Source: a virus. From it: 39,665 nt of DNA. Location of the stretch: the IMG/VR virus record IMGVR_UViG_3300045988_174472. The stretch is one strand, 5' to 3'. The position numbers were made by a program, and so were the translations under genes. The first letter of the stretch is position 1. The number at the start of each line of letters is the position of its first letter. A model generated the notes under the pieces. The model was not told where the DNA came from. It was given only the letters and a program-made list of their open reading frames with translations, and searched no databases. Positions 227 through 39,665 of this stretch are shown piece by piece.

Positions 227-372
227 TTTAATATATATTTTTCTTATTATTTATAACTCTGCTTTTGAACTCCTTTTATGGTATAATGTTTTTTAGAGAA
301 ATTATAATCTAAGAGTGGGGTTTCATATATAGCCTTTGTTCCTGCGATAAGTAGGAAGGAGGTGTAAACTAT

Positions 373-528
373 ATGGAGCAAAAGAAGAAGATAATCATAA
401 CTGTTATAGTTATTCCAGTTATTATTGGTTTGGCTGTAAACTTTGTTTATGATAAAATAAAAAACCACTCTTACGGCAATAAGGGTGGCTTTCAAGTTGA
501 ATTCAACATAAAAGTTAAATTTGACTAA
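373..528 (+). CDS. Type I toxin-like small membrane peptide, copy 1 (51 aa)
   Basis: ATG at 373, TAA at 526-528; absent from the ORF track because it is under 60 aa. Translation MEQKKKIIITVIVIPVIIGLAVNFVYDKIKNHSYGNKGGFQVEFNIKVKFD has a hydrophobic helix and a Lys-rich tail. GGAGG at 358-362 and extended -10 TGGTATAAT at 279-287. Paralog of 1362..1526 and 4217..4396. Confidence 0.75.
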   Translation: MEQKKKIIITVIVIPVIIGLAVNFVYDKIKNHSYGNKGGFQVEFNIKVKFD

Positions 529-596
529 TATTATATTGTATATATAGAAATCACACTCTATTCCACTAGATTATAATTTCTCTTTTTTATTTCTAT
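457..596 (-). ncRNA. Candidate antisense antitoxin RNA, copy 1
   Basis: Minus-strand -10 TATAAT (plus-strand attata at 603-608), followed by the 5' module at 580->547. On the minus strand, hairpin 488-481/472-465 plus a T-run (plus-strand A-run 457-464) forms an intrinsic terminator inside the toxin ORF. The RNA is complementary to the 3' third of the toxin mRNA. Confidence 0.55.
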
Positions 597-679
597 GTTT
601 TTATTATACTACAAAATGCAGAAAAATACACAGTATATATTTTAATGTATTTTTTTCATATTATTATAATATATTTATA

Positions 680-1204: not shown

Positions 1205-1361
1205 AAATTTTGTTTTATTTATATAATAAAAACAAAGAAATGATTGAAGTATATAAAAACTTATATGGATATGATATAATAAATATAGGAATTTCAATTT
1301 ATAGAGTGGTGTTTCCATACTAAATATAAAGCCTACTTCTTAACGGAAGGAGGTGAGAAGT

Positions 1362-1526
1362 ATGGAACAAATGATAAATATTGTCATAGGTGCTATTTGC
1401 ACAATATGTCTTGGTCTATTGACTAACTACATATCCGACAAATTAAAAAGCCACTCTAGTTCTAGGAAAACTAAGAGTGGCGTGGAACTTGAAATAAAAA
1501 TCAAGTTCAAAATTACCAAAAATTAA
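1362..1526 (+). CDS. Type I toxin-like small membrane peptide, copy 2 (54 aa)
   Basis: Translation MEQMINIVIGAICTICLGLLTNYISDKLKSHSSSRKTKSGVELEIKIKFKITKN. GGAGG at 1349-1353, 8 nt before the ATG. Extended -10 TGATATAAT at 1272-1280. SD-sequestering hairpin cctacttc (1332-1339) / gaaggagg (1346-1353). Confidence 0.8.
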   Translation: MEQMINIVIGAICTICLGLLTNYISDKLKSHSSSRKTKSGVELEIKIKFKITKN

Positions 1527-1574
1527 AGTTTTGGAAACATCACTCTAGCGCAAATAGATTGAAGTTCCTTTTAT
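1442..1574 (-). ncRNA. Candidate antisense antitoxin RNA, copy 2
   Basis: Minus-strand -10 TATAAT (plus-strand attata at 1581-1586), with the 5' module at 1568->1533. Minus-strand terminator is gccactct (1450-1457) / agagtggc (1474-1481) followed by TTTTTAATT (plus-strand 1441-1449). It overlaps toxin codons about 28-54 and the 3' UTR. Confidence 0.6.
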
Positions 1575-1629
1575 ATTTATATTATACTACAAAATATATA
1601 AAAATAAACATTATATATTTAGTTATATT

Positions 1630-2913: not shown

Positions 2914-3840
2914 CTAGAATTTTATCTTTGCAACTTCAAATAATCCTTTAGCAGTAGCTAATTGTGCATCTTCAACTCTTTTGAACTCTTCATCGAACTC
3001 TAAATTTATAGATGTTCCTCCTGCAACATATATATCCATTTCTGATTTATTTATCCAAATATCTTCTATTCTTTGAGCTAAATTTTCAGAACCTAATAAA
3101 TAAGCCTTTGCCTTTAAATCATCGTAGTCATTAGATGTATCTATTTCATTAACATCCTTCATTATATCGTTATTTCTTAATGAATCTTGCACAGTAGTTA
3201 ATAATGTTCTGTTACCAAATTCAATTGTATTTGACATCTTATCATTAAATGTAAACCCTTTGTCAAAATAAGATAATTCTGTAGTTCTAAATCCAACTGA
3301 AACTAATCCAACAGGTTTATCCTCATTTATTTTACCACCTATAGCATGTATTAAAGCTGCATCACCTTCTCTAAGTATAGAAATATTATTTATATAAACT
3401 TCCTTAGTTGATCCACTTATTTTATTTTTAACCTTTATAGTTTTACCTTTATATGTTTCTATAACTTCTTTTAAAACTGATTTTCTATAGTTTTTATAAG
3501 GTACTCCTAACATAACATCAACTTTATCTTTTACAGCTATCTCACTAAGTGCTGCTGCAAATAATACTTCTACAGTATGACTTGTTTTACTATCTCTTGA
3601 ATTTCTTACTGGTACTTGTGATTCTTTCTCAGCTAATAATCCAATAAAGTAATTTTCATTTTTGTATTCTATGTAGATAGGTTTCTCACTTTCTTTATTC
3701 ATGTATTCAGATAGATCTATATCTCTACCTTCTCCAATTACTGATTTAAAAACTGCAACATGTTCAATGTTATTTTCTTCAGAGTATGCCTTAACATAAC
3801 CTCTCCCAAAGTCTAGTCCAATTTTTTGAATATTTTCCAT
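2914..3840 (-). CDS. parM: Actin-like plasmid segregation ATPase (ParM/StbA/Alp family)
   Basis: N-terminal phosphate-1 motif IGLDFGRGYVKA. Later motifs VGLVSVGFRTTE and VAGGTS are typical of the actin/ParM fold. 308 aa, adjacent to a repeat array. Confidence 0.8.
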   Translation of the reverse strand: MENIQKIGLDFGRGYVKAYSEENNIEHVAVFKSVIGEGRDIDLSEYMNKESEKPIYIEYKNENYFIGLLAEKESQVPVRNSRDSKTSHTVEVLFAAALSEIAVKDKVDVMLGVPYKNYRKSVLKEVIETYKGKTIKVKNKISGSTKEVYINNISILREGDAALIHAIGGKINEDKPVGLVSVGFRTTELSYFDKGFTFNDKMSNTIEFGNRTLLTTVQDSLRNNDIMKDVNEIDTSNDYDDLKAKAYLLGSENLAQRIEDIWINKSEMDIYVAGGTSINLEFDEEFKRVEDAQLATAKGLFEVAKIKF

Positions 3841-3856
3841 TTTAATATATACCTCC

Positions 3857-4073
3857 GTTGATATGTTGTTGAGTTCTTGTTAACTCTAAAATAATTGTAT
3901 AATATTTTAGTTAAGATGTCAACAATACATTAACTATTTCTTTATCCTATCGTTGATATATTGTTGAGTTCTTGTTAATTCTAAAATAGTTACATAATAT
4001 TTTAATTAAGATATTAACAATATATCAACCATTTATACTTTTATCATTAATACATTGTTGAGTTCTTGTTAAT
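3857..4073. repeat. parC: parC-like centromere: three ~95-bp units with direct and inverted half-sites
   Basis: Core ttgttgagttcttgttaa occurs at 3866, 3961 and 4055. Inverted partners (gttaatgtattgttgacatcttaa-like) lie at about 3911-3935 and 4005-4030. The array is immediately upstream of parM. Confidence 0.7.
3894..3922 (-). promoter_or_regulatory. parMR promoter embedded in parC
   Basis: On the minus strand, TTGACA (3922-3917), a 17-nt spacer, then TACAAT (3899-3894), about 50 nt upstream of the parM ATG. Confidence 0.5.
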
Positions 4074-4167
4074 CATTTTTTTTAATTATTATAAAAAAAG
4101 ATATAGAAATTAGTCTATATCTCAAAAAATAAGTTTAAAACTCCATTTATTCTGCTATAATATAAAA

Positions 4168-4312
4168 TATAAAAGGAATTGAAATCTATTTAGCAGTAGA
4201 GTGATGTTCCTAAAAATTATTTTTTAGAATTTTTAAGATTAAAATTAAGTTCAAAAAATTTTAACTTAATTTTAATCTCTAAGCCACTCTCTCGCATAGA
4301 GTGGCTTTTTAA
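4168..4312 (+). ncRNA. Candidate antisense antitoxin RNA, copy 3
   Basis: Extended -10 TGCTATAAT at 4153-4161 and 5' module at 4175-4210. Terminator gccactct (4283-4290) / agagtggc (4298-4305) plus TTTTT at 4306-4310. Fully antisense to the 3' part of toxin 3. Confidence 0.6.
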
Positions 4313-4396
4313 TTTGTCAGATATATAATTAGTCGTTAGACCAAGACATATTGCACCAATAGCACTTATAATACCGACAATTATCTTTTGTTCCAT
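4217..4396 (-). CDS. Type I toxin-like small membrane peptide, copy 3 (59 aa)
   Basis: Translation MEQKIIVGIISAIGAICLGLTTNYISDKLKSHSMRESGLEIKIKLKFFELNFNLKNSKK. It shares ICLGL.TNYISDKLKSHS with copy 2. SD is ggaaggagg. Extended -10 TGATATAAT on the minus strand (plus-strand 4476-4484). Confidence 0.8.
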   Translation of the reverse strand: MEQKIIVGIISAIGAICLGLTTNYISDKLKSHSMRESGLEIKIKLKFFELNFNLKNSKK

Positions 4397-4540
4397 ACTT
4401 CCTCACCTCCTTCCTGCAAAGAAGTAGGTAAGTTCTTGAATGAAACACCACTCTATAGATTTCAATTCCTCTATTATTATATCATATACATATTGATAGT
4501 ACTATGTTTTATACTATTAACATAAAAAATAGAGTAGAGT

Positions 4541-4577
4541 AGTATTATATAGTTTACTCATACTCTTATTTTATTCA
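4541..4577. terminator. Terminator of the rep operon (bidirectional hairpin)
   Basis: Stem agagtagagta / tactcatactct. On the minus strand it is followed by attttttat. Confidence 0.55.
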
Positions 4578-4669
4578 AGTGTTTTTCCTACTAAGAAGTA
4601 ATGTCGAGTTATGTAATAGAGCAAAAAAGACTAATTTAAATAAGTTTTATAAAAGTTATCGATACAACT

Positions 4670-5026
4670 TTACTTTGTCCAATTAGATGGTATAAAATAT
4701 CCATTTTCTCTAGCATAATTTAAAACATAATCTTTTTGCTTATCATCATATTCATGCCATGCTCCAAAAACAGCATTATGATATGCTTCTTCACTACGTT
4801 CTCTTTTATTTTTAATATTTAAATTTTGTTCATTATTAGTATATTTAATTCCATTTTCTGGATAGTCAAACCAATCTGGATGCAAAGGCAACTTATTTTC
4901 TTCTGCATAATCAACTAATATCATTTGTATAGCTACATGTTTTTCTCTAAATTCAAGAGGGTGACTCATATAATACGAATATAAGTTATCGTTAGCGTTA
5001 TTTGCATGTTGTTGATTCATTTTCAT
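4670..5026 (-). CDS. Hypothetical protein co-transcribed with rep
   Basis: 118-aa ORF with RBS aggagaaatg context. It starts 24 nt downstream of the rep stop. No motif recognised. Confidence 0.6.
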   Translation of the reverse strand: MKMNQQHANNANDNLYSYYMSHPLEFREKHVAIQMILVDYAEENKLPLHPDWFDYPENGIKYTNNEQNLNIKNKRERSEEAYHNAVFGAWHEYDDKQKDYVLNYARENGYFIPSNWTK

Positions 5027-5049: not shown

Positions 5050-6300
5050 TTATTTGAATTTATTTCTTTGCGATTCTTGTAGATGTCTTTCTAATTCTTC
5101 AGGCGTATAATTTAGAAAAGCCGCATTAACATTATGAGCTTTATTTTTTAGTGATCTCATTTCATACTCTTGTTTCTGCTTTGAAATTATTTCTTCTTTA
5201 GATTTTTCTTCTTCATTTTCATTATAGTACCTAGCTTTTACTCTTGTAACTGATTCATTTAAATTTTTTAAATCATTTATTTTATTTTTCAAAGTCCCTT
5301 TGAAATAATTATATGACTTTACTTTTATTTTTTCCTCATCATCTTTTTCTAATGTAATAGTTATAGATTCTTGTAATATTTTTTTATATTTATTGTCTTT
5401 AAAGTCATAATTGCTAAAATCATTTTTAAAATATTCTAGTGTTTTAGCTGTAAATAGCTTTTTATTAGGCACATAAAATACATCTTTAATATTATTAGTT
5501 TCAACAGTAGTTATATCTTCATTTTCTATGTCTTCTTTATTTACATTTTTTACTTCAATAATTGGATTATCAATAGTATTTTTAAAATATATCTTCTTTT
5601 CGAAATCATATATAGTAAATTTTATTTCATCTACCTTTCTTCCATTTTTTATTTCATCTATACTAACTTCCATATTACCAAGTTTATTAATTTCTTTTAT
5701 TGCTTGACTTAGAACTCTTTGCTTAAAATTTTTATACTCTGGATATTTATTTTCAACACCTAAAACAAATCTTAATTGATCTATTTTAAAGTTTTTTATT
5801 ATTGTCATATCTGTTCTACTCCATAATCTCAATAATTCATATAATCTCTGTGCATAAAAACTTTTAAACTTAGTTAATATTTCTAAATTTAAAGGTGCAT
5901 AAACTGTATAATCAATTAAATGCCTGTATAGTCTATCAGCAAGTTTTATTTTAAATGTTTCTTTATTTACATTATATTCACTACCAGCGATTAAATTGTA
6001 ATCACATTCGATAGTATCACCATCTTCTTTCTTTTCAAATTCCAAAGATGTTTGTTTTAAAATTTGTATAGTCTTTTTTATATTAGATAAAGTTCTTTGA
6101 TTTTTATTTGGTATAAGTTTTTTTAGATCTTCTAATTTTACAGTACAACTTAGTTCCCCATTTTTTTCTTTTTGCGCAGTTAATAGACAGTAATAAAATA
6201 TTCTATTTTGAATTGCTGTAACCTCATAAGATGTATGTACTAATTGTTTTGACTGCATTAATAAATCTAAACATTTATCATTTGATGTAATTTCGCTCAT
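5050..6300 (-). CDS. rep: Theta-type plasmid replication initiator (Rep_3/RepB-like)
   Basis: 416 aa. The N-terminal half has the Rep_3 pattern (QSKQLVHTSYEVTAIQNRIFYYCL ... YAQRLYELLRLW ... LRFVLGVENKYPEYKNFKQRVLSQAIKEINK). An iteron array lies directly upstream. Confidence 0.75.
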   Translation of the reverse strand: MSEITSNDKCLDLLMQSKQLVHTSYEVTAIQNRIFYYCLLTAQKEKNGELSCTVKLEDLKKLIPNKNQRTLSNIKKTIQILKQTSLEFEKKEDGDTIECDYNLIAGSEYNVNKETFKIKLADRLYRHLIDYTVYAPLNLEILTKFKSFYAQRLYELLRLWSRTDMTIIKNFKIDQLRFVLGVENKYPEYKNFKQRVLSQAIKEINKLGNMEVSIDEIKNGRKVDEIKFTIYDFEKKIYFKNTIDNPIIEVKNVNKEDIENEDITTVETNNIKDVFYVPNKKLFTAKTLEYFKNDFSNYDFKDNKYKKILQESITITLEKDDEEKIKVKSYNYFKGTLKNKINDLKNLNESVTRVKARYYNENEEEKSKEEIISKQKQEYEMRSLKNKAHNVNAAFLNYTPEELERHLQESQRNKFK

Positions 6301-10582: not shown

Positions 10583-10735
10583 ATGGAGGAAACTAGAGTG
10601 ATATTTACATTATCATGTAAATGTTGTGATGATAAGCAAAATATATTAGTTGATAAAAATAGAGCAATAAAGCTAGAAAAAATAAAAAATGAAATTATAT
10701 GTGACAAGTGCATAGAAAAAAGGAGATTGAAATGA
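10583..10735 (+). CDS. Small zinc-ribbon-like protein (50 aa)
   Basis: RBS aggagattgaat. Translation MEETRVIFTLSCKCCDDKQNILVDKNRAIKLEKIKNEIICDKCIEKRRLK (CxCC...CxxC). Its stop overlaps the next start (ATGA). Confidence 0.45.
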   Translation: MEETRVIFTLSCKCCDDKQNILVDKNRAIKLEKIKNEIICDKCIEKRRLK

Positions 10736-35800: not shown

Positions 35801-36091
35801 ATGGAACAAATGATAACAGAATTTGCAGGACTTGGAATAGTTGGATTAATAGGAGGATATCTATTTACAACATTTATGAAAGAAAGAGCAGAAGAACGAA
35901 AAGTTAGTATGGAAAATCAAAAAGAAGATAGAGAACTATTTAGAAAATCGGTTGAAACTTTTACTGAAACTTCAAATACGTATGCAGAAACTATAGGATC
36001 TCTTACTGTTAGAGTTGAAAATGTAGAAGAAAATACTGAAAGAATAGAGCAAAAATTAGATAAAGTATTATACAAAGTGGAGGTAAAATAA
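35801..36091 (+). CDS. BhlA/UviB-family holin-like protein
   Basis: N-terminal TM FAGLGIVGLIGGYLFTTFM followed by a charged coiled coil. It ends one base before the endolysin start. Confidence 0.6.
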   Translation: MEQMITEFAGLGIVGLIGGYLFTTFMKERAEERKVSMENQKEDRELFRKSVETFTETSNTYAETIGSLTVRVENVEENTERIEQKLDKVLYKVEVK

Positions 36092-36092
36092 T

Positions 36093-36917
36093 ATGGATTT
36101 AAATATACATGCAGGGCACAATCCAGACGATAAGTCTGCTTGCGGAGCTATAGGATTAATAAAGGAATCAACAGAAAATAGAAATGTTAAAAATGATTTA
36201 ATAGATATATTAAAAGATAAAAATAATACTGTATATGATTGTACAGTAAATAACGGAACGTCTGTATCAGATGTAATCAATAAAATAGTTGCTAAATGTA
36301 ATGCACATTCAGTAGATTTAGATGTATCAATACACTTTAACAGTGGAGCTGAAGATAAAAATGGAAATGGCAAGAGTACTGGAGTAGAAGTGTTAGTTTA
36401 TAAAATGAGTGGTCCAGCATATGAAGCGGCAGTAAGAATTTGTAAAGAAATTGAAGCTTTAGGATATAAAAATAGAGGAGTTAAGCAAAGAACTGATTTA
36501 TCTTTCTTAAAGAAAACAAAAGCTCCAGCATTATTAGTTGAGTGTTGCTTTGTAGATGATAAAGATGATATAGATTTATATAATTCTAAGTCAATTGCTA
36601 AAGCTATAGCTCAAGGAATTTTAAATAAAAAAATATCAACATCAGTTCCACAACATACACCAGTTCCAGATTCAGAAATATTCTATAGAGCAGTATCAGG
36701 AAGCTTTAATAATAAAAATAATGCACTTGATAGAAAAGACAAATTAGATAAAGATGAATTTAGTGGTGTATTCTTAGAAGCATTTGTAAAAGATGAAACT
36801 ACCTGGTACAGAGTTATCGCCGGATCATTCAAAGATAGAAAACTAGCAGAGCAAAGAATAAAAGACTTATCTGATAAAGGATATGACGGAGGATTTATAG
36901 CTGCATTTAGAAAATAA
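36093..36917 (+). CDS. Endolysin: N-acetylmuramoyl-L-alanine amidase (Amidase_3) with C-terminal SPOR-like domain
   Basis: Amidase_3 pattern IHAGHN...SIHFNS...GVEVL...LLVECCFVD. C-terminus FYRAVSGSF...WYRVIAGSF is SPOR-type. Confidence 0.9.
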   Translation: MDLNIHAGHNPDDKSACGAIGLIKESTENRNVKNDLIDILKDKNNTVYDCTVNNGTSVSDVINKIVAKCNAHSVDLDVSIHFNSGAEDKNGNGKSTGVEVLVYKMSGPAYEAAVRICKEIEALGYKNRGVKQRTDLSFLKKTKAPALLVECCFVDDKDDIDLYNSKSIAKAIAQGILNKKISTSVPQHTPVPDSEIFYRAVSGSFNNKNNALDRKDKLDKDEFSGVFLEAFVKDETTWYRVIAGSFKDRKLAEQRIKDLSDKGYDGGFIAAFRK

Positions 36918-36984: not shown

Positions 36985-37024
36985 TACATATTCCAATTTT
37001 CAAAGCTACATGTTATATTTTTTA

Positions 37025-37130
37025 GGAATTACAATCTATAGAGTGGTATTTCAATACAATGTTGAAAGTAGATAAATTTTGAATAATAAAAATAAGAGTT
37101 GTATTTATTCATTTATACAACCCTTATTTT
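37025..37130 (+). ncRNA. Orphan RNA carrying the toxin-type 5' module but no toxin ORF
   Basis: Extended -10-like TGTTATATT at 37011-37019. Module ggaattacaatctatagagtggtatttca at 37025-37053. Only a 7-codon ORF follows. Hairpin 37093-37126 plus TTTT. Confidence 0.35.
37093..37130 (-). terminator. Terminator of the secreted-protein gene (hairpin shared with the orphan RNA)
   Basis: Stem taagagttgtat / atacaaccctta. The stem is better on the minus strand (G-U instead of A-C) and is followed there by a T-run. Confidence 0.6.
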
Positions 37131-37274
37131 TAGTTCACATTATATTATAGTAAATTAACTTATAAATGATAGTATAGAATTTGTTATAATTTTATTTATG
37201 TAATTATATAGCAACAATATGTATACTAACTTTTTAAAGTTAAATTACTATAATATTAGCAATATAAAAATATT

Positions 37275-39546: not shown

Positions 39547-39665
39547 ATTTTTTTTTTGATATAATTAAAATTAGTTATAGGGTAAACCCATATTAATGTA
39601 TCATCTATAAGTATATAAGCTGCCTATTTTGGTAGCCGTTATTATGGTTCCATAACACTAGCCCA
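39547..39665. repeat. Terminal redundancy, right copy
   Basis: Exact copy of 1-119. It starts 14 nt after the stop of the DUF3800 gene. Confidence 0.9.

Follow-up and report, generated by a model that had tools for sequence, protein, structure and literature searches.

Cassette 3, a locus on the viral record IMGVR_UViG_3300045988_174472, is very probably a type I toxin-antitoxin (TA) module of the kind known from Clostridioides difficile, residing on a circular phage-plasmid. Hereafter, the window refers to the whole stretch of 39,665 nt of this record that was analyzed. An earlier, sequence-only reading of this DNA had already proposed a type I TA cassette at 4153–4484, and this proposal holds up on the homology of the encoded peptide to validated toxins, a layout like that published for C. 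difficile, conserved promoters, an antisense terminator inside the toxin open reading frame (ORF), and a three-hairpin antisense RNA. The family assignment, the 5′/3′ inverted repeat, the central hairpin, and the toxin terminator are additions to that reading. The proposed extent proved too small, with the antisense –35 element (4134–4139) and, on the toxin strand, a hairpin (4099–4123) plus T-run (4092–4098) falling outside of it; the full module measures ca. 390 nt and runs from about 4092 to 4484 (Table 1).

On the minus strand, toxin transcription is predicted to start near position 4469, behind an extended –10 element (TGATATAAT) that had been placed correctly at 4484–4476 (the plus strand reads attatatca at 4476–4484). 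This leaves a predicted 5′ untranslated region (5′UTR) of about 73 nt in front of the minus-strand ORF 4217..4396, whose translation is exactly the 59-aa peptide quoted at the time. On the plus strand, the sequence indeed reads tgctataat at 4153–4161 (i.e., the –10 element TGCTATAAT of the earlier reading), and the promoter scan pairs it with a TTTAAA element, yielding 10/12 matches plus an upstream TG. The antisense terminator was likewise read back in the sequence, i.e., gccactct (4283–4290), ctcgcat, agagtggc (4298–4305), and then ttttt (4306–4310), and was confirmed by the terminator scan, in which it was the sole terminator-like site between 3800 and 4800 (1 found vs. 0.1 from shuffles). 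Further along the toxin transcript, the region 4175–4210 holds on the minus strand a 3′UTR box followed by UUUUAUAUUUUAU, where a local hairpin and U-run possibly constitute the 3′ end of the toxin mRNA. The AT-rich hairpin at 4092..4123 is a candidate distal terminator of this transcript: it is present in the minimum free energy (MFE) fold of the toxin mRNA and conserved in cassettes of the cassette 3 type, and it lies below the three G-C pairs that the terminator scan demands. The predicted length of the toxin mRNA is roughly 310–380 nt.

The cassette 3 peptide is hydrophobic at residues 4–25 and carries 10 K/R vs. 5 D/E in its C-terminal half (direct count), while AlphaFold2 predicted a single helix spanning residues 2–57 (predicted local distance difference test score, pLDDT, of 78), in keeping with a small single-pass membrane peptide with a Lys-rich tail. 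The NCBIfam model NF047374 (CD_typeI_toxin) matched the peptides of cassette 3 (17.9 bits, E = 0.003), cassette 2 (29.3 bits, E = 8e-7), and cassette 1 (25.3 bits, E = 1.5e-5), all scoring below its curated equivalog cut-off of 60 bits, and no other noteworthy NCBIfam match was found for the peptides of the window. Bridging homologues from C. difficile scored 55 bits (toxin of phage LIBA2945) and 34 bits (toxin of plasmid p_TW11) against the same model, and the cassette 3 toxin shares 48% identity with the LIBA2945 toxin (E = 2e-8, BLASTP). By these significant matches, the cassette toxin is placed as a distant relative within the superfamily of C. difficile type I toxins, not an equivalog, with its likely connection to the validated C. 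difficile loci resting on the NCBIfam model and the bridging homologues. Searches against Pfam returned noise-level matches to domains of unknown function only, and the Fst/Ldr, TxpA/BsrG, and Hok families gave no Pfam or NCBIfam match at E-values up to 10. The PADLOC models yielded no match, and neither did Rfam 15 at gathering score in the window, with only chance-level hairpin-like matches in 4050–4550 at relaxed E-values. Finally, a megablast of 3800–4700 against phage and plasmid collections gave no match because the relatives are too diverged at the DNA level, so that protein-mode searches were needed.

Among 5.8 billion proteins, 28 homologues of the cassette 3 peptide were found, their names pointing to Romboutsia, Terrisporobacter, and Clostridium sp. 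The toxin family is small, as 1.84 billion proteins yielded no more than 24 representative clusters at E ≤ 1e-3. Loci for comparison were obtained from genome and viral contig scans plus contig look-ups (L001–L025), to which protein-mode searches added C. difficile phages, one C. difficile plasmid, and the pCS1 plasmids of Paraclostridium sordellii. Alignment of 27 distinct cassettes (from Romboutsia, Terrisporobacter, Paraclostridium, and C. difficile phages and plasmids) revealed that the whole ca. 390 nt is conserved, beyond the ORF, and that conservation ends at both module edges, where the flanking genes vary. Read along the toxin strand, the conserved order comprises the TGnTATAAT promoter, a 5′UTR box AGGAATTGAAATCTATAGAGTGGTGTTTC, the Shine-Dalgarno (SD) sequence GGAAGGAGGTG, the ORF, the 3′UTR box, the antisense TTTAAA-N16-TGnTATAAT promoter, and then the distal AT-rich hairpin with its T-run (4092–4123 in the window). 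TATAAT is invariant in both promoters among the cassettes listed, and the antisense –35 and extended –10 elements are both kept. Moreover, the ORF is under purifying selection, with a ratio of nonsynonymous to synonymous polymorphism (pN/pS) of 0.36–0.46 and every indel in frame. Judged from this conservation, the module is not a product of chance.

The predicted antitoxin RNA has full complementarity to the ORF's 3′-terminal 96 nt and to the 3′UTR, and folds at –39.5 kcal/mol (z = –5.7) into a 5′ hairpin, a 20-bp central hairpin, and the terminator. Of 25 distinct cassettes, 24 show this three-hairpin architecture, those from C. difficile and P. sordellii among them. The central hairpin encodes the toxin C-terminal EIKIKLKFFELNFNLK, and other cassette types have a hairpin of different sequence at this position. 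The antisense terminator and its U-tract, in turn, coincide with the family's most conserved peptide motif, D-K-L-K-S-H-S…S-G, whose codons are frozen at their synonymous sites (Lys AAA 24/24, Leu TTA 21/21, Ser AGC 17/17, His CAC 23/23, and Ser AGT 21/21), with CAC and AGC kept despite a genomic GC content of only 27.6%; the N-terminal codons vary, with 2–4 synonyms in use. Across 24 cassettes the terminator helix is 94% paired, and in five cassettes an S→N change (AGC→AAC) co-occurs with GGC→GGT on the partner strand, i.e., a compensatory change from G-C to A-U. As direct sequence evidence, the frozen synonymous sites and the compensatory change argue for a second, RNA-level constraint on the part of the ORF that overlaps the terminator.

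It could be argued that the ORF merely encodes another small phage membrane protein (e.g., a holin or antiholin, a superinfection exclusion protein, or a membrane anchor), with incidental antisense signals and no antisense regulation. Promoter-like sites are indeed common in such AT-rich DNA (14 found vs. 8 expected in the promoter scan), the best PHROG family of the peptides (phrog_738) has no assigned function, and copy 2, alone among them, weakly matches a PHROG holin family (phrog_6918, E = 0.019). Since that match is weak and limited to copy 2, and the element has its own holin-endolysin pair at 35801–36917, a holin identity was rejected. Furthermore, the antisense promoter, three-hairpin RNA, and terminator are kept across genera, the synonymous freezing falls exactly under the antisense terminator and U-tract, and the peptide is homologous to toxins with demonstrated antisense regulation (PMC5961336), so that a mere membrane protein with incidental antisense signals is very improbable.

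The cassette is flanked by an inverted repeat whose arms start at both –10 boxes (4156–4189 with 4455–4488, and 4197–4208 with 4444–4455), and therefore both transcripts start alike and the toxin 5′UTR is complementary to the toxin 3′UTR. In the MFE fold of the cassette 3 toxin mRNA (z = –9.7), the 5′ and 3′ regions indeed pair with each other, and the 3′ end of the 5′ box (UUUCA) pairs with the start-codon region. The MFE folds of cassette 1, cassette 2, and the C. difficile phage copy are closed from 5′ to 3′ as well, the arms of the phage copy differing in sequence. Run on 24 cassettes, RNAalifold predicted the 5′-3′ pairing unaided and with six compensatory pairs, the helices being 91–99% paired, and the covariation score amounted to 0.134 vs. 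0.092 for shuffles (0/500 reaching 0.134) and 0.03–0.05 for slid controls. Covariation was counted on alignment A3 only; the C. difficile and P. sordellii cassettes were kept out of it and folded individually, because alignment A4 misaligned their outer helix arms.

An inverted repeat of this kind might also act as DNA, e.g., as an operator through which one regulator would act on both promoters, or as a promoter-leader unit present in duplicate, rather than through pairing within the mRNA. That the arms begin at the –10 boxes, that the promoters resemble each other, as do the initial ~45 nt of the transcripts, that each arm is also able to fold locally into a 5′ hairpin, and that two outer-helix mismatches are tolerated in two cassettes (L002 and L019) would all fit such a role. 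However, the non-canonical cells in the pairing comprise 53 G·U (11 positions) vs. 5 A·C (4 positions), an asymmetry that is expected only if the toxin-sense RNA pairs and that therefore argues against a purely DNA-level repeat. The compensatory changes at six pairs point the same way, as does the retention of the pairing with different arm sequences in the distant C. difficile phage copy, and 5′-3′ pairings are recognized in type I toxin mRNAs (PMC8594479). A role as DNA is thus improbable, and we favor pairing within the toxin mRNA.

Within the toxin 5′UTR, the SD sequence is predicted to be sequestered in a hairpin whose helices are 84–92% paired across 24 cassettes, and the AUG to pair with a conserved UUUC(C)AU, which explains the invariant ATGGA at the ORF start. 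In the full-length cassette 3 mRNA, the probability of being unpaired is 0.26 for the SD and 0.27 for the AUG, and both sites are sequestered in all in-silico states (i.e., full-length, 3′-truncated, and antitoxin-bound mRNA). A hok-like activation by 3′ trimming was dropped, since neither removal of the 3′ arm nor antitoxin binding opens the SD or the AUG; when the 5′-3′ pairing of cassette 3 is removed in silico, AUG accessibility falls from 0.27 to 0.10–0.17. In these models the 5′-3′ clamp looks like a stability element or a bsrG/SR4-like switch, not a hok-like translational lock. As 5′-3′ pairings and anti-SD hairpins are recognized hallmarks of type I toxin mRNAs (PMC8594479), the clamp of the cassette is a family-specific case of a known type I principle.

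In the mechanism that we propose, the minus strand would be transcribed from the extended –10 promoter into an mRNA for the 59-aa single-helix membrane peptide. This mRNA would be born closed, with its 5′ end on its own 3′UTR, its SD in the anti-SD hairpin, and its AUG on UUUC(C)AU. The plus strand would be transcribed constitutively from TTTAAA-16-TGCTATAAT into a ~145-nt three-hairpin RNA ending inside the ORF and complementary without mismatch to the 3′ half of the toxin mRNA, with which it could form a duplex over about 145 nt, presumably leading to mRNA degradation, tighter closure of the start region, or both. Upon loss of the element, the short-lived antisense RNA would decay first, and the stable, 5′-3′-clamped mRNA would eventually be translated into a peptide that damages the membrane. 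The analysis itself shows the sequence features of the cassette, how these are conserved and covary, and the homology to the validated family; transcription, RNA half-lives, toxicity, killing of element-free cells, and the acting RNases are what we infer here for cassette 3.

A number of observations weigh against this picture. The toxin promoter has no recognizable –35 element, the 3′ end of the toxin mRNA is ambiguous (about 4160–4170 or about 4092), and the 17.9 bits of the cassette 3 peptide lie far from the NF047374 cut-off of 60, with cassettes 1 and 2 also remaining below it. In addition, the covariation stems from few cassette lineages, and L002 and L019 (probably recombinant cassettes) carry two mismatches in the outer helix, indicating that this part of the pairing is not strictly required. 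Finally, SD and AUG accessibility differs little between the in-silico states, so that these states do not account for the activation of translation.

As to its role, the sequence-only reading had located the cassette between the partition centromere parC and the replication operon and connected this location with post-segregational killing in support of ParMRC. The location stands, with ParM at 2914–3840(–), the parC repeats at 3853–4073, and Rep3 at 5050–6300(–). A place beside partition and replication genes is retained in related phage-plasmids, and this position beside parMRC and rep fits a maintenance role; two of the compared cassettes (L001 and L024) adjoin parM in phage-plasmid-like contigs. 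Killing of cells that lose the element, as a back-up to ParMRC, is reasonable by analogy, since C. difficile relatives were shown experimentally to stabilize plasmids and prophages (PMC7699646). In conjugative-type elements (L016–L022 and L029), the same cassette is also found, with MobL relaxase/sortase genes on one side and ArdC-like genes on the other; this presence marks it as a portable stability or addiction module.

A type I module might nevertheless mainly serve a purpose other than backing up ParMRC, such as warding off other phages (abortive infection), competing with related elements, or responding to stress. The occurrence of the same cassette type in several backbones, including conjugative-type elements without a nearby parM, could be taken in this sense, as could the presence of three divergent copies on one 39.5-kb element, seemingly beyond its stability needs, and the link of C. 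difficile relatives to CRISPR arrays and SigB stress control (PMC5961336). On the other hand, there is direct evidence from C. difficile relatives for plasmid stabilization and for the maintenance of prophages (PMC7699646), the PADLOC defence models are without a match, and the position by partition and replication genes is kept in related phage-plasmids. We therefore regard a main role in defence, competition, or stress as rather unlikely, and maintenance of the element as the preferred reading.

Some of the compared loci show arrangements of their own. In the conjugative-type elements (about 1100–1900 in each of L016–L022 and L029), the cassette is always bordered by a 68–69-aa ORF, itself downstream of MobL/sortase, and by an ArdC-N/Peptidase_M78 (ImmA/IrrE) gene, which suggests that it has a fixed place in a transfer-related gene block. 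Locus L003 carries two tandem cassettes (1501–1683 and 1975–2124), about 470 nt apart, and in phage phiCDHM14 (L026, about 491–805) two truncated toxin-like ORFs adjoin a ParA gene.

Cassette 3 is not the only cassette on the element. Scanning the six frames of the window with a hidden Markov model (HMM) built from homologues yielded exactly three copies of the peptide gene, at 373..528(+), 1362..1526(+), and 4217..4396(–), in agreement with the earlier claim of three paralogous toxins. The claimed homology of the cassette 3 ORF to copy 2 is clear, and extends to copy 1. For copy 2, the start is most likely the ATG at 1362 (MEQM…), rather than the upstream GTG at 1353 of the ORF list. Cassettes 1 and 2 share the full architecture of cassette 3, with a promoter for either transcript, an inverted repeat at the flanks, an antisense terminator within the ORF, a central hairpin, and an mRNA that folds into a closed form. 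Whether their antitoxins cross-protect had been raised as a question. The three predicted antitoxins (AT1 to AT3) share 57–66% identity, with a longest identical run of 16 nt (AT2 vs. AT3), and cross-reaction in C. difficile is confined to near-identical antitoxins, which differ by 3 mismatches (PMC7699646, PMC6563280), so that cross-protection appears unlikely here, the near-identical 5′ domains of AT2 and AT3 leaving some room for it.

An orphan copy of the 5′ box is located at 37005–37135(+), just downstream of the endolysin gene, where a –10-like TGTTATATT is followed by AGGAATTACAATCTATAGAGTGGTATTTC. It has neither an SD nor an ORF, and is followed by a hairpin AAGAGTTGTAT…ATACAACCCTT and a T-run (fold z = –3.2). 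It could be what is left of a fourth cassette, or give rise to a short RNA with complementarity to the 3′UTR boxes of the toxins. An exact-match scan of viral contigs revealed no copy of this orphan box, and a motif match at 10594 is situated inside a coding region and was taken as chance.

A more far-reaching scheme can be put forward tentatively, being doubtful as a whole. The 5′-3′ clamp would be family-wide and include the C. difficile modules, and its 3′ arm would be exactly the target of the 5′ hairpin domain of the antitoxin, which, beyond mere duplex formation, would displace the clamp and switch the 5′UTR onto the start codon. For the most part, it would be the terminator and central hairpin of the antisense RNA, and not the needs of the toxin, that dictate the DKLKSHS…SG motif and the KIK/ELNF tail, and the orphan box at about 37005–37135 could act in trans on the three toxin mRNAs.

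Table 1. Features of cassette 3 and of the element carrying it (positions in the window).
Feature	Position	Strand	Remarks
Toxin promoter, extended –10 TGATATAAT	4476..4484	–	Direct reading; plus strand attatatca
5′ box of toxin mRNA, GGAAUUGAAAUCUAUAGAGUGGUGUUUC	4440..4469	–	5′ arm in the long-distance pairing; I1 and I11 among the inverted repeats
SD-sequestering hairpin, anti-SD CUUACCUACUUCUU pairing with AGGAAGGAGGUGAG	4402..4432	–	SD GGAGG at about 4406–4410
Toxin ORF, 59 aa (180 nt)	4217..4396	–	From the ORF listing; pN/pS 0.37
Antisense promoter, TTTAAA (4134–4139), 16-nt spacer, TGCTATAAT (4153–4161)	4134..4161	+	
Predicted antitoxin RNA, about 145 nt	4168..4312	+	Three hairpins
5′ hairpin domain of antisense RNA (plus strand); 3′ arm of the long-distance pairing (minus strand)	4175..4210	+/–	
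Central 20-bp hairpin	4236..4278		Palindrome folding on both strands; inverted repeat I2, 95% complementary
Antisense intrinsic terminator, stem AAGCCACUCU-loop-AGAGUGGCUU plus U5	4281..4312	+	Inside toxin ORF
AT-rich hairpin GAGAUAUAG-loop-CUAUAUCU, then U7	4092..4123	–	Just before parC
Cassette 1	279–612	+	
Cassette 2	1270–1600	+	
ParM (ALP_N)	2914–3840	–	
Candidate parC centromere, three direct repeat units 94–95 nt apart, core TGTTGAGTTCTTGTTAA	3853–4073		Upstream of parM
Rep3 initiator	5050–6300	–	
Likely replication iterons, 5.5 tandem copies of the 22-nt TTGTTACCTTTAGAGTATCAAA	6484–6602		Upstream of the Rep3 gene
Holin	35801–36091		Of the element
Endolysin	36093–36917		Of the element

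The ends of the window are identical (1–119 = 39547–39665), and because of this 119-nt terminal redundancy the window represents a circularly closed assembly of 39,546 bp, with a GC content of 27.6%. It encodes a terminase, portal, capsid, tape measure, holin, endolysin, and LexA-like repressor, and this phage gene set on a circular element with ParM and Rep3 therefore defines a phage-plasmid. The Rep protein shares 67% identity with the Rep of P. sordellii plasmids, which places the host in the Peptostreptococcaceae, where it is probably Romboutsia or a close relative. In the candidate parC, the repeat reaches 84 nt (87% identity) between units 1 and 2, and the toxin transcript heads towards these repeats, with the hairpin at 4092–4123 standing in between. 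Between cassettes 1 and 2 lies a 59-aa ORF (MSKKRLKVNFNKGG…) at 680–859(–) without a Pfam match, and its neighbour, a 104-aa ORF at 1630–1944(–), encodes an HTH_38 protein.

With our analysis, the range of the C. difficile type I TA family comes to include phage-plasmids and conjugative-type elements from Romboutsia, Terrisporobacter, and Paraclostridium, in which the toxin genes usually lack annotation or carry the label hypothetical. Moreover, the comparative set of 27 cassettes reveals features that are undiscussed in the cited C. difficile papers, i.e., the 5′-3′ clamp of the toxin mRNA and the coding sequence constrained by the antisense terminator. The three cassettes go some way towards explaining how a phage-plasmid of low copy number could persist, and could serve as counter-selection markers, as in C. 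difficile. The understanding of type I systems as such is unchanged: cassette 3 is, on its sequence, a more divergent member of a known and experimentally characterized family, and an ordinary, well-formed plasmid/phage-maintenance module.

Its closest characterized counterparts are the C. difficile modules CD0956.2/RCd10, CD2907.1/RCd9, and CD2517.1/RCd8 (NF047374; PMC5961336, PMC7699646), whose toxins are homologous and have the core YI(S/Y)DKLKSHS…KSG…IK.KF in common with the cassette toxin. These modules have toxin mRNAs of about 300 nt with 5′UTRs of 83–88 nt and sequestered ribosome-binding sites (RBSs), and antitoxins of 134–140 nt, with the toxin mRNA 3′ ends near the antitoxin start and convergent overlaps of 131–134 nt (PMC5961336). 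Their toxins arrest growth and the cognate antitoxins rescue (PMC5961336, PMC7699646), and homologues that had escaped annotation were already noted on plasmids of C. difficile and P. sordellii (PMC7699646; PMC6563280). Cassette 3 resembles these modules in its convergent transcripts, its ~135–145-nt antitoxin ending in the ORF, its long 5′UTR with sequestered RBS, and its association with phages and plasmids in the Peptostreptococcaceae. The same boxes, hairpins, and 5′-3′ pairing as in cassette 3 are present in the C. difficile phage copy (LIBA2945, L027). Cassette 3 differs from these modules in that the window toxins score 18–29 bits vs. the NF047374 cut-off of 60, and in that its toxin counts 59 aa vs. 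30–56 aa, because an extended central hairpin adds FFELNFNLK. The host genus and the ParMRC/Rep3 phage-plasmid backbone are different as well, and cassette 3 has no adjacent CRISPR array or cyclic di-GMP riboswitch. The 5′-3′ pairing and the overlap of motif and terminator are not mentioned in the cited C. difficile papers.

Among more distant systems, hok/sok of plasmid R1 and aapA1/IsoA1 of Helicobacter pylori share with cassette 3 a 5′-3′ closed toxin mRNA and SD sequestration, and their antisense RNA is unstable; hok/sok moreover exerts post-segregational killing from a plasmid. Neither has a sequence relationship to cassette 3, and whereas the target of Sok and IsoA1 lies in the 5′ region of the mRNA, the antisense RNA of cassette 3 spans the 3′ half. 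The in-silico states of cassette 3 give no indication of a hok/aapA1-type activation by 3′ trimming.

The bsrG/SR4 and txpA/RatA systems of Bacillus subtilis are alike in their convergent antisense RNA overlapping the 3′ end, their sequestered RBS, and their prophage location. Binding of SR4 at the bsrG 3′ end tightens the structure around the RBS (PMC3834814), and in cassette 3 the loss of the 5′-3′ pairing also leaves the AUG less accessible in silico. The peptide family is different, and the cassette toxins gave no Pfam or NCBIfam match to that of bsrG/txpA.

Finally, the par system of Enterococcus faecalis plasmid pAD1 (Fst, RNA I/RNA II) is likewise a plasmid-borne type I TA system of a Gram-positive host, with a toxin to which the cassette toxin is unrelated (Pfam). 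In par RNA I, an intramolecular helix between the 5′ end and the region upstream of the terminator stabilizes the toxin RNA. The repeats of par make the 5′ ends of RNA I and RNA II complementary, and the two RNAs share a bidirectional terminator, whereas in cassette 3 the repeats are inverted and the 5′ ends of both transcripts are alike.

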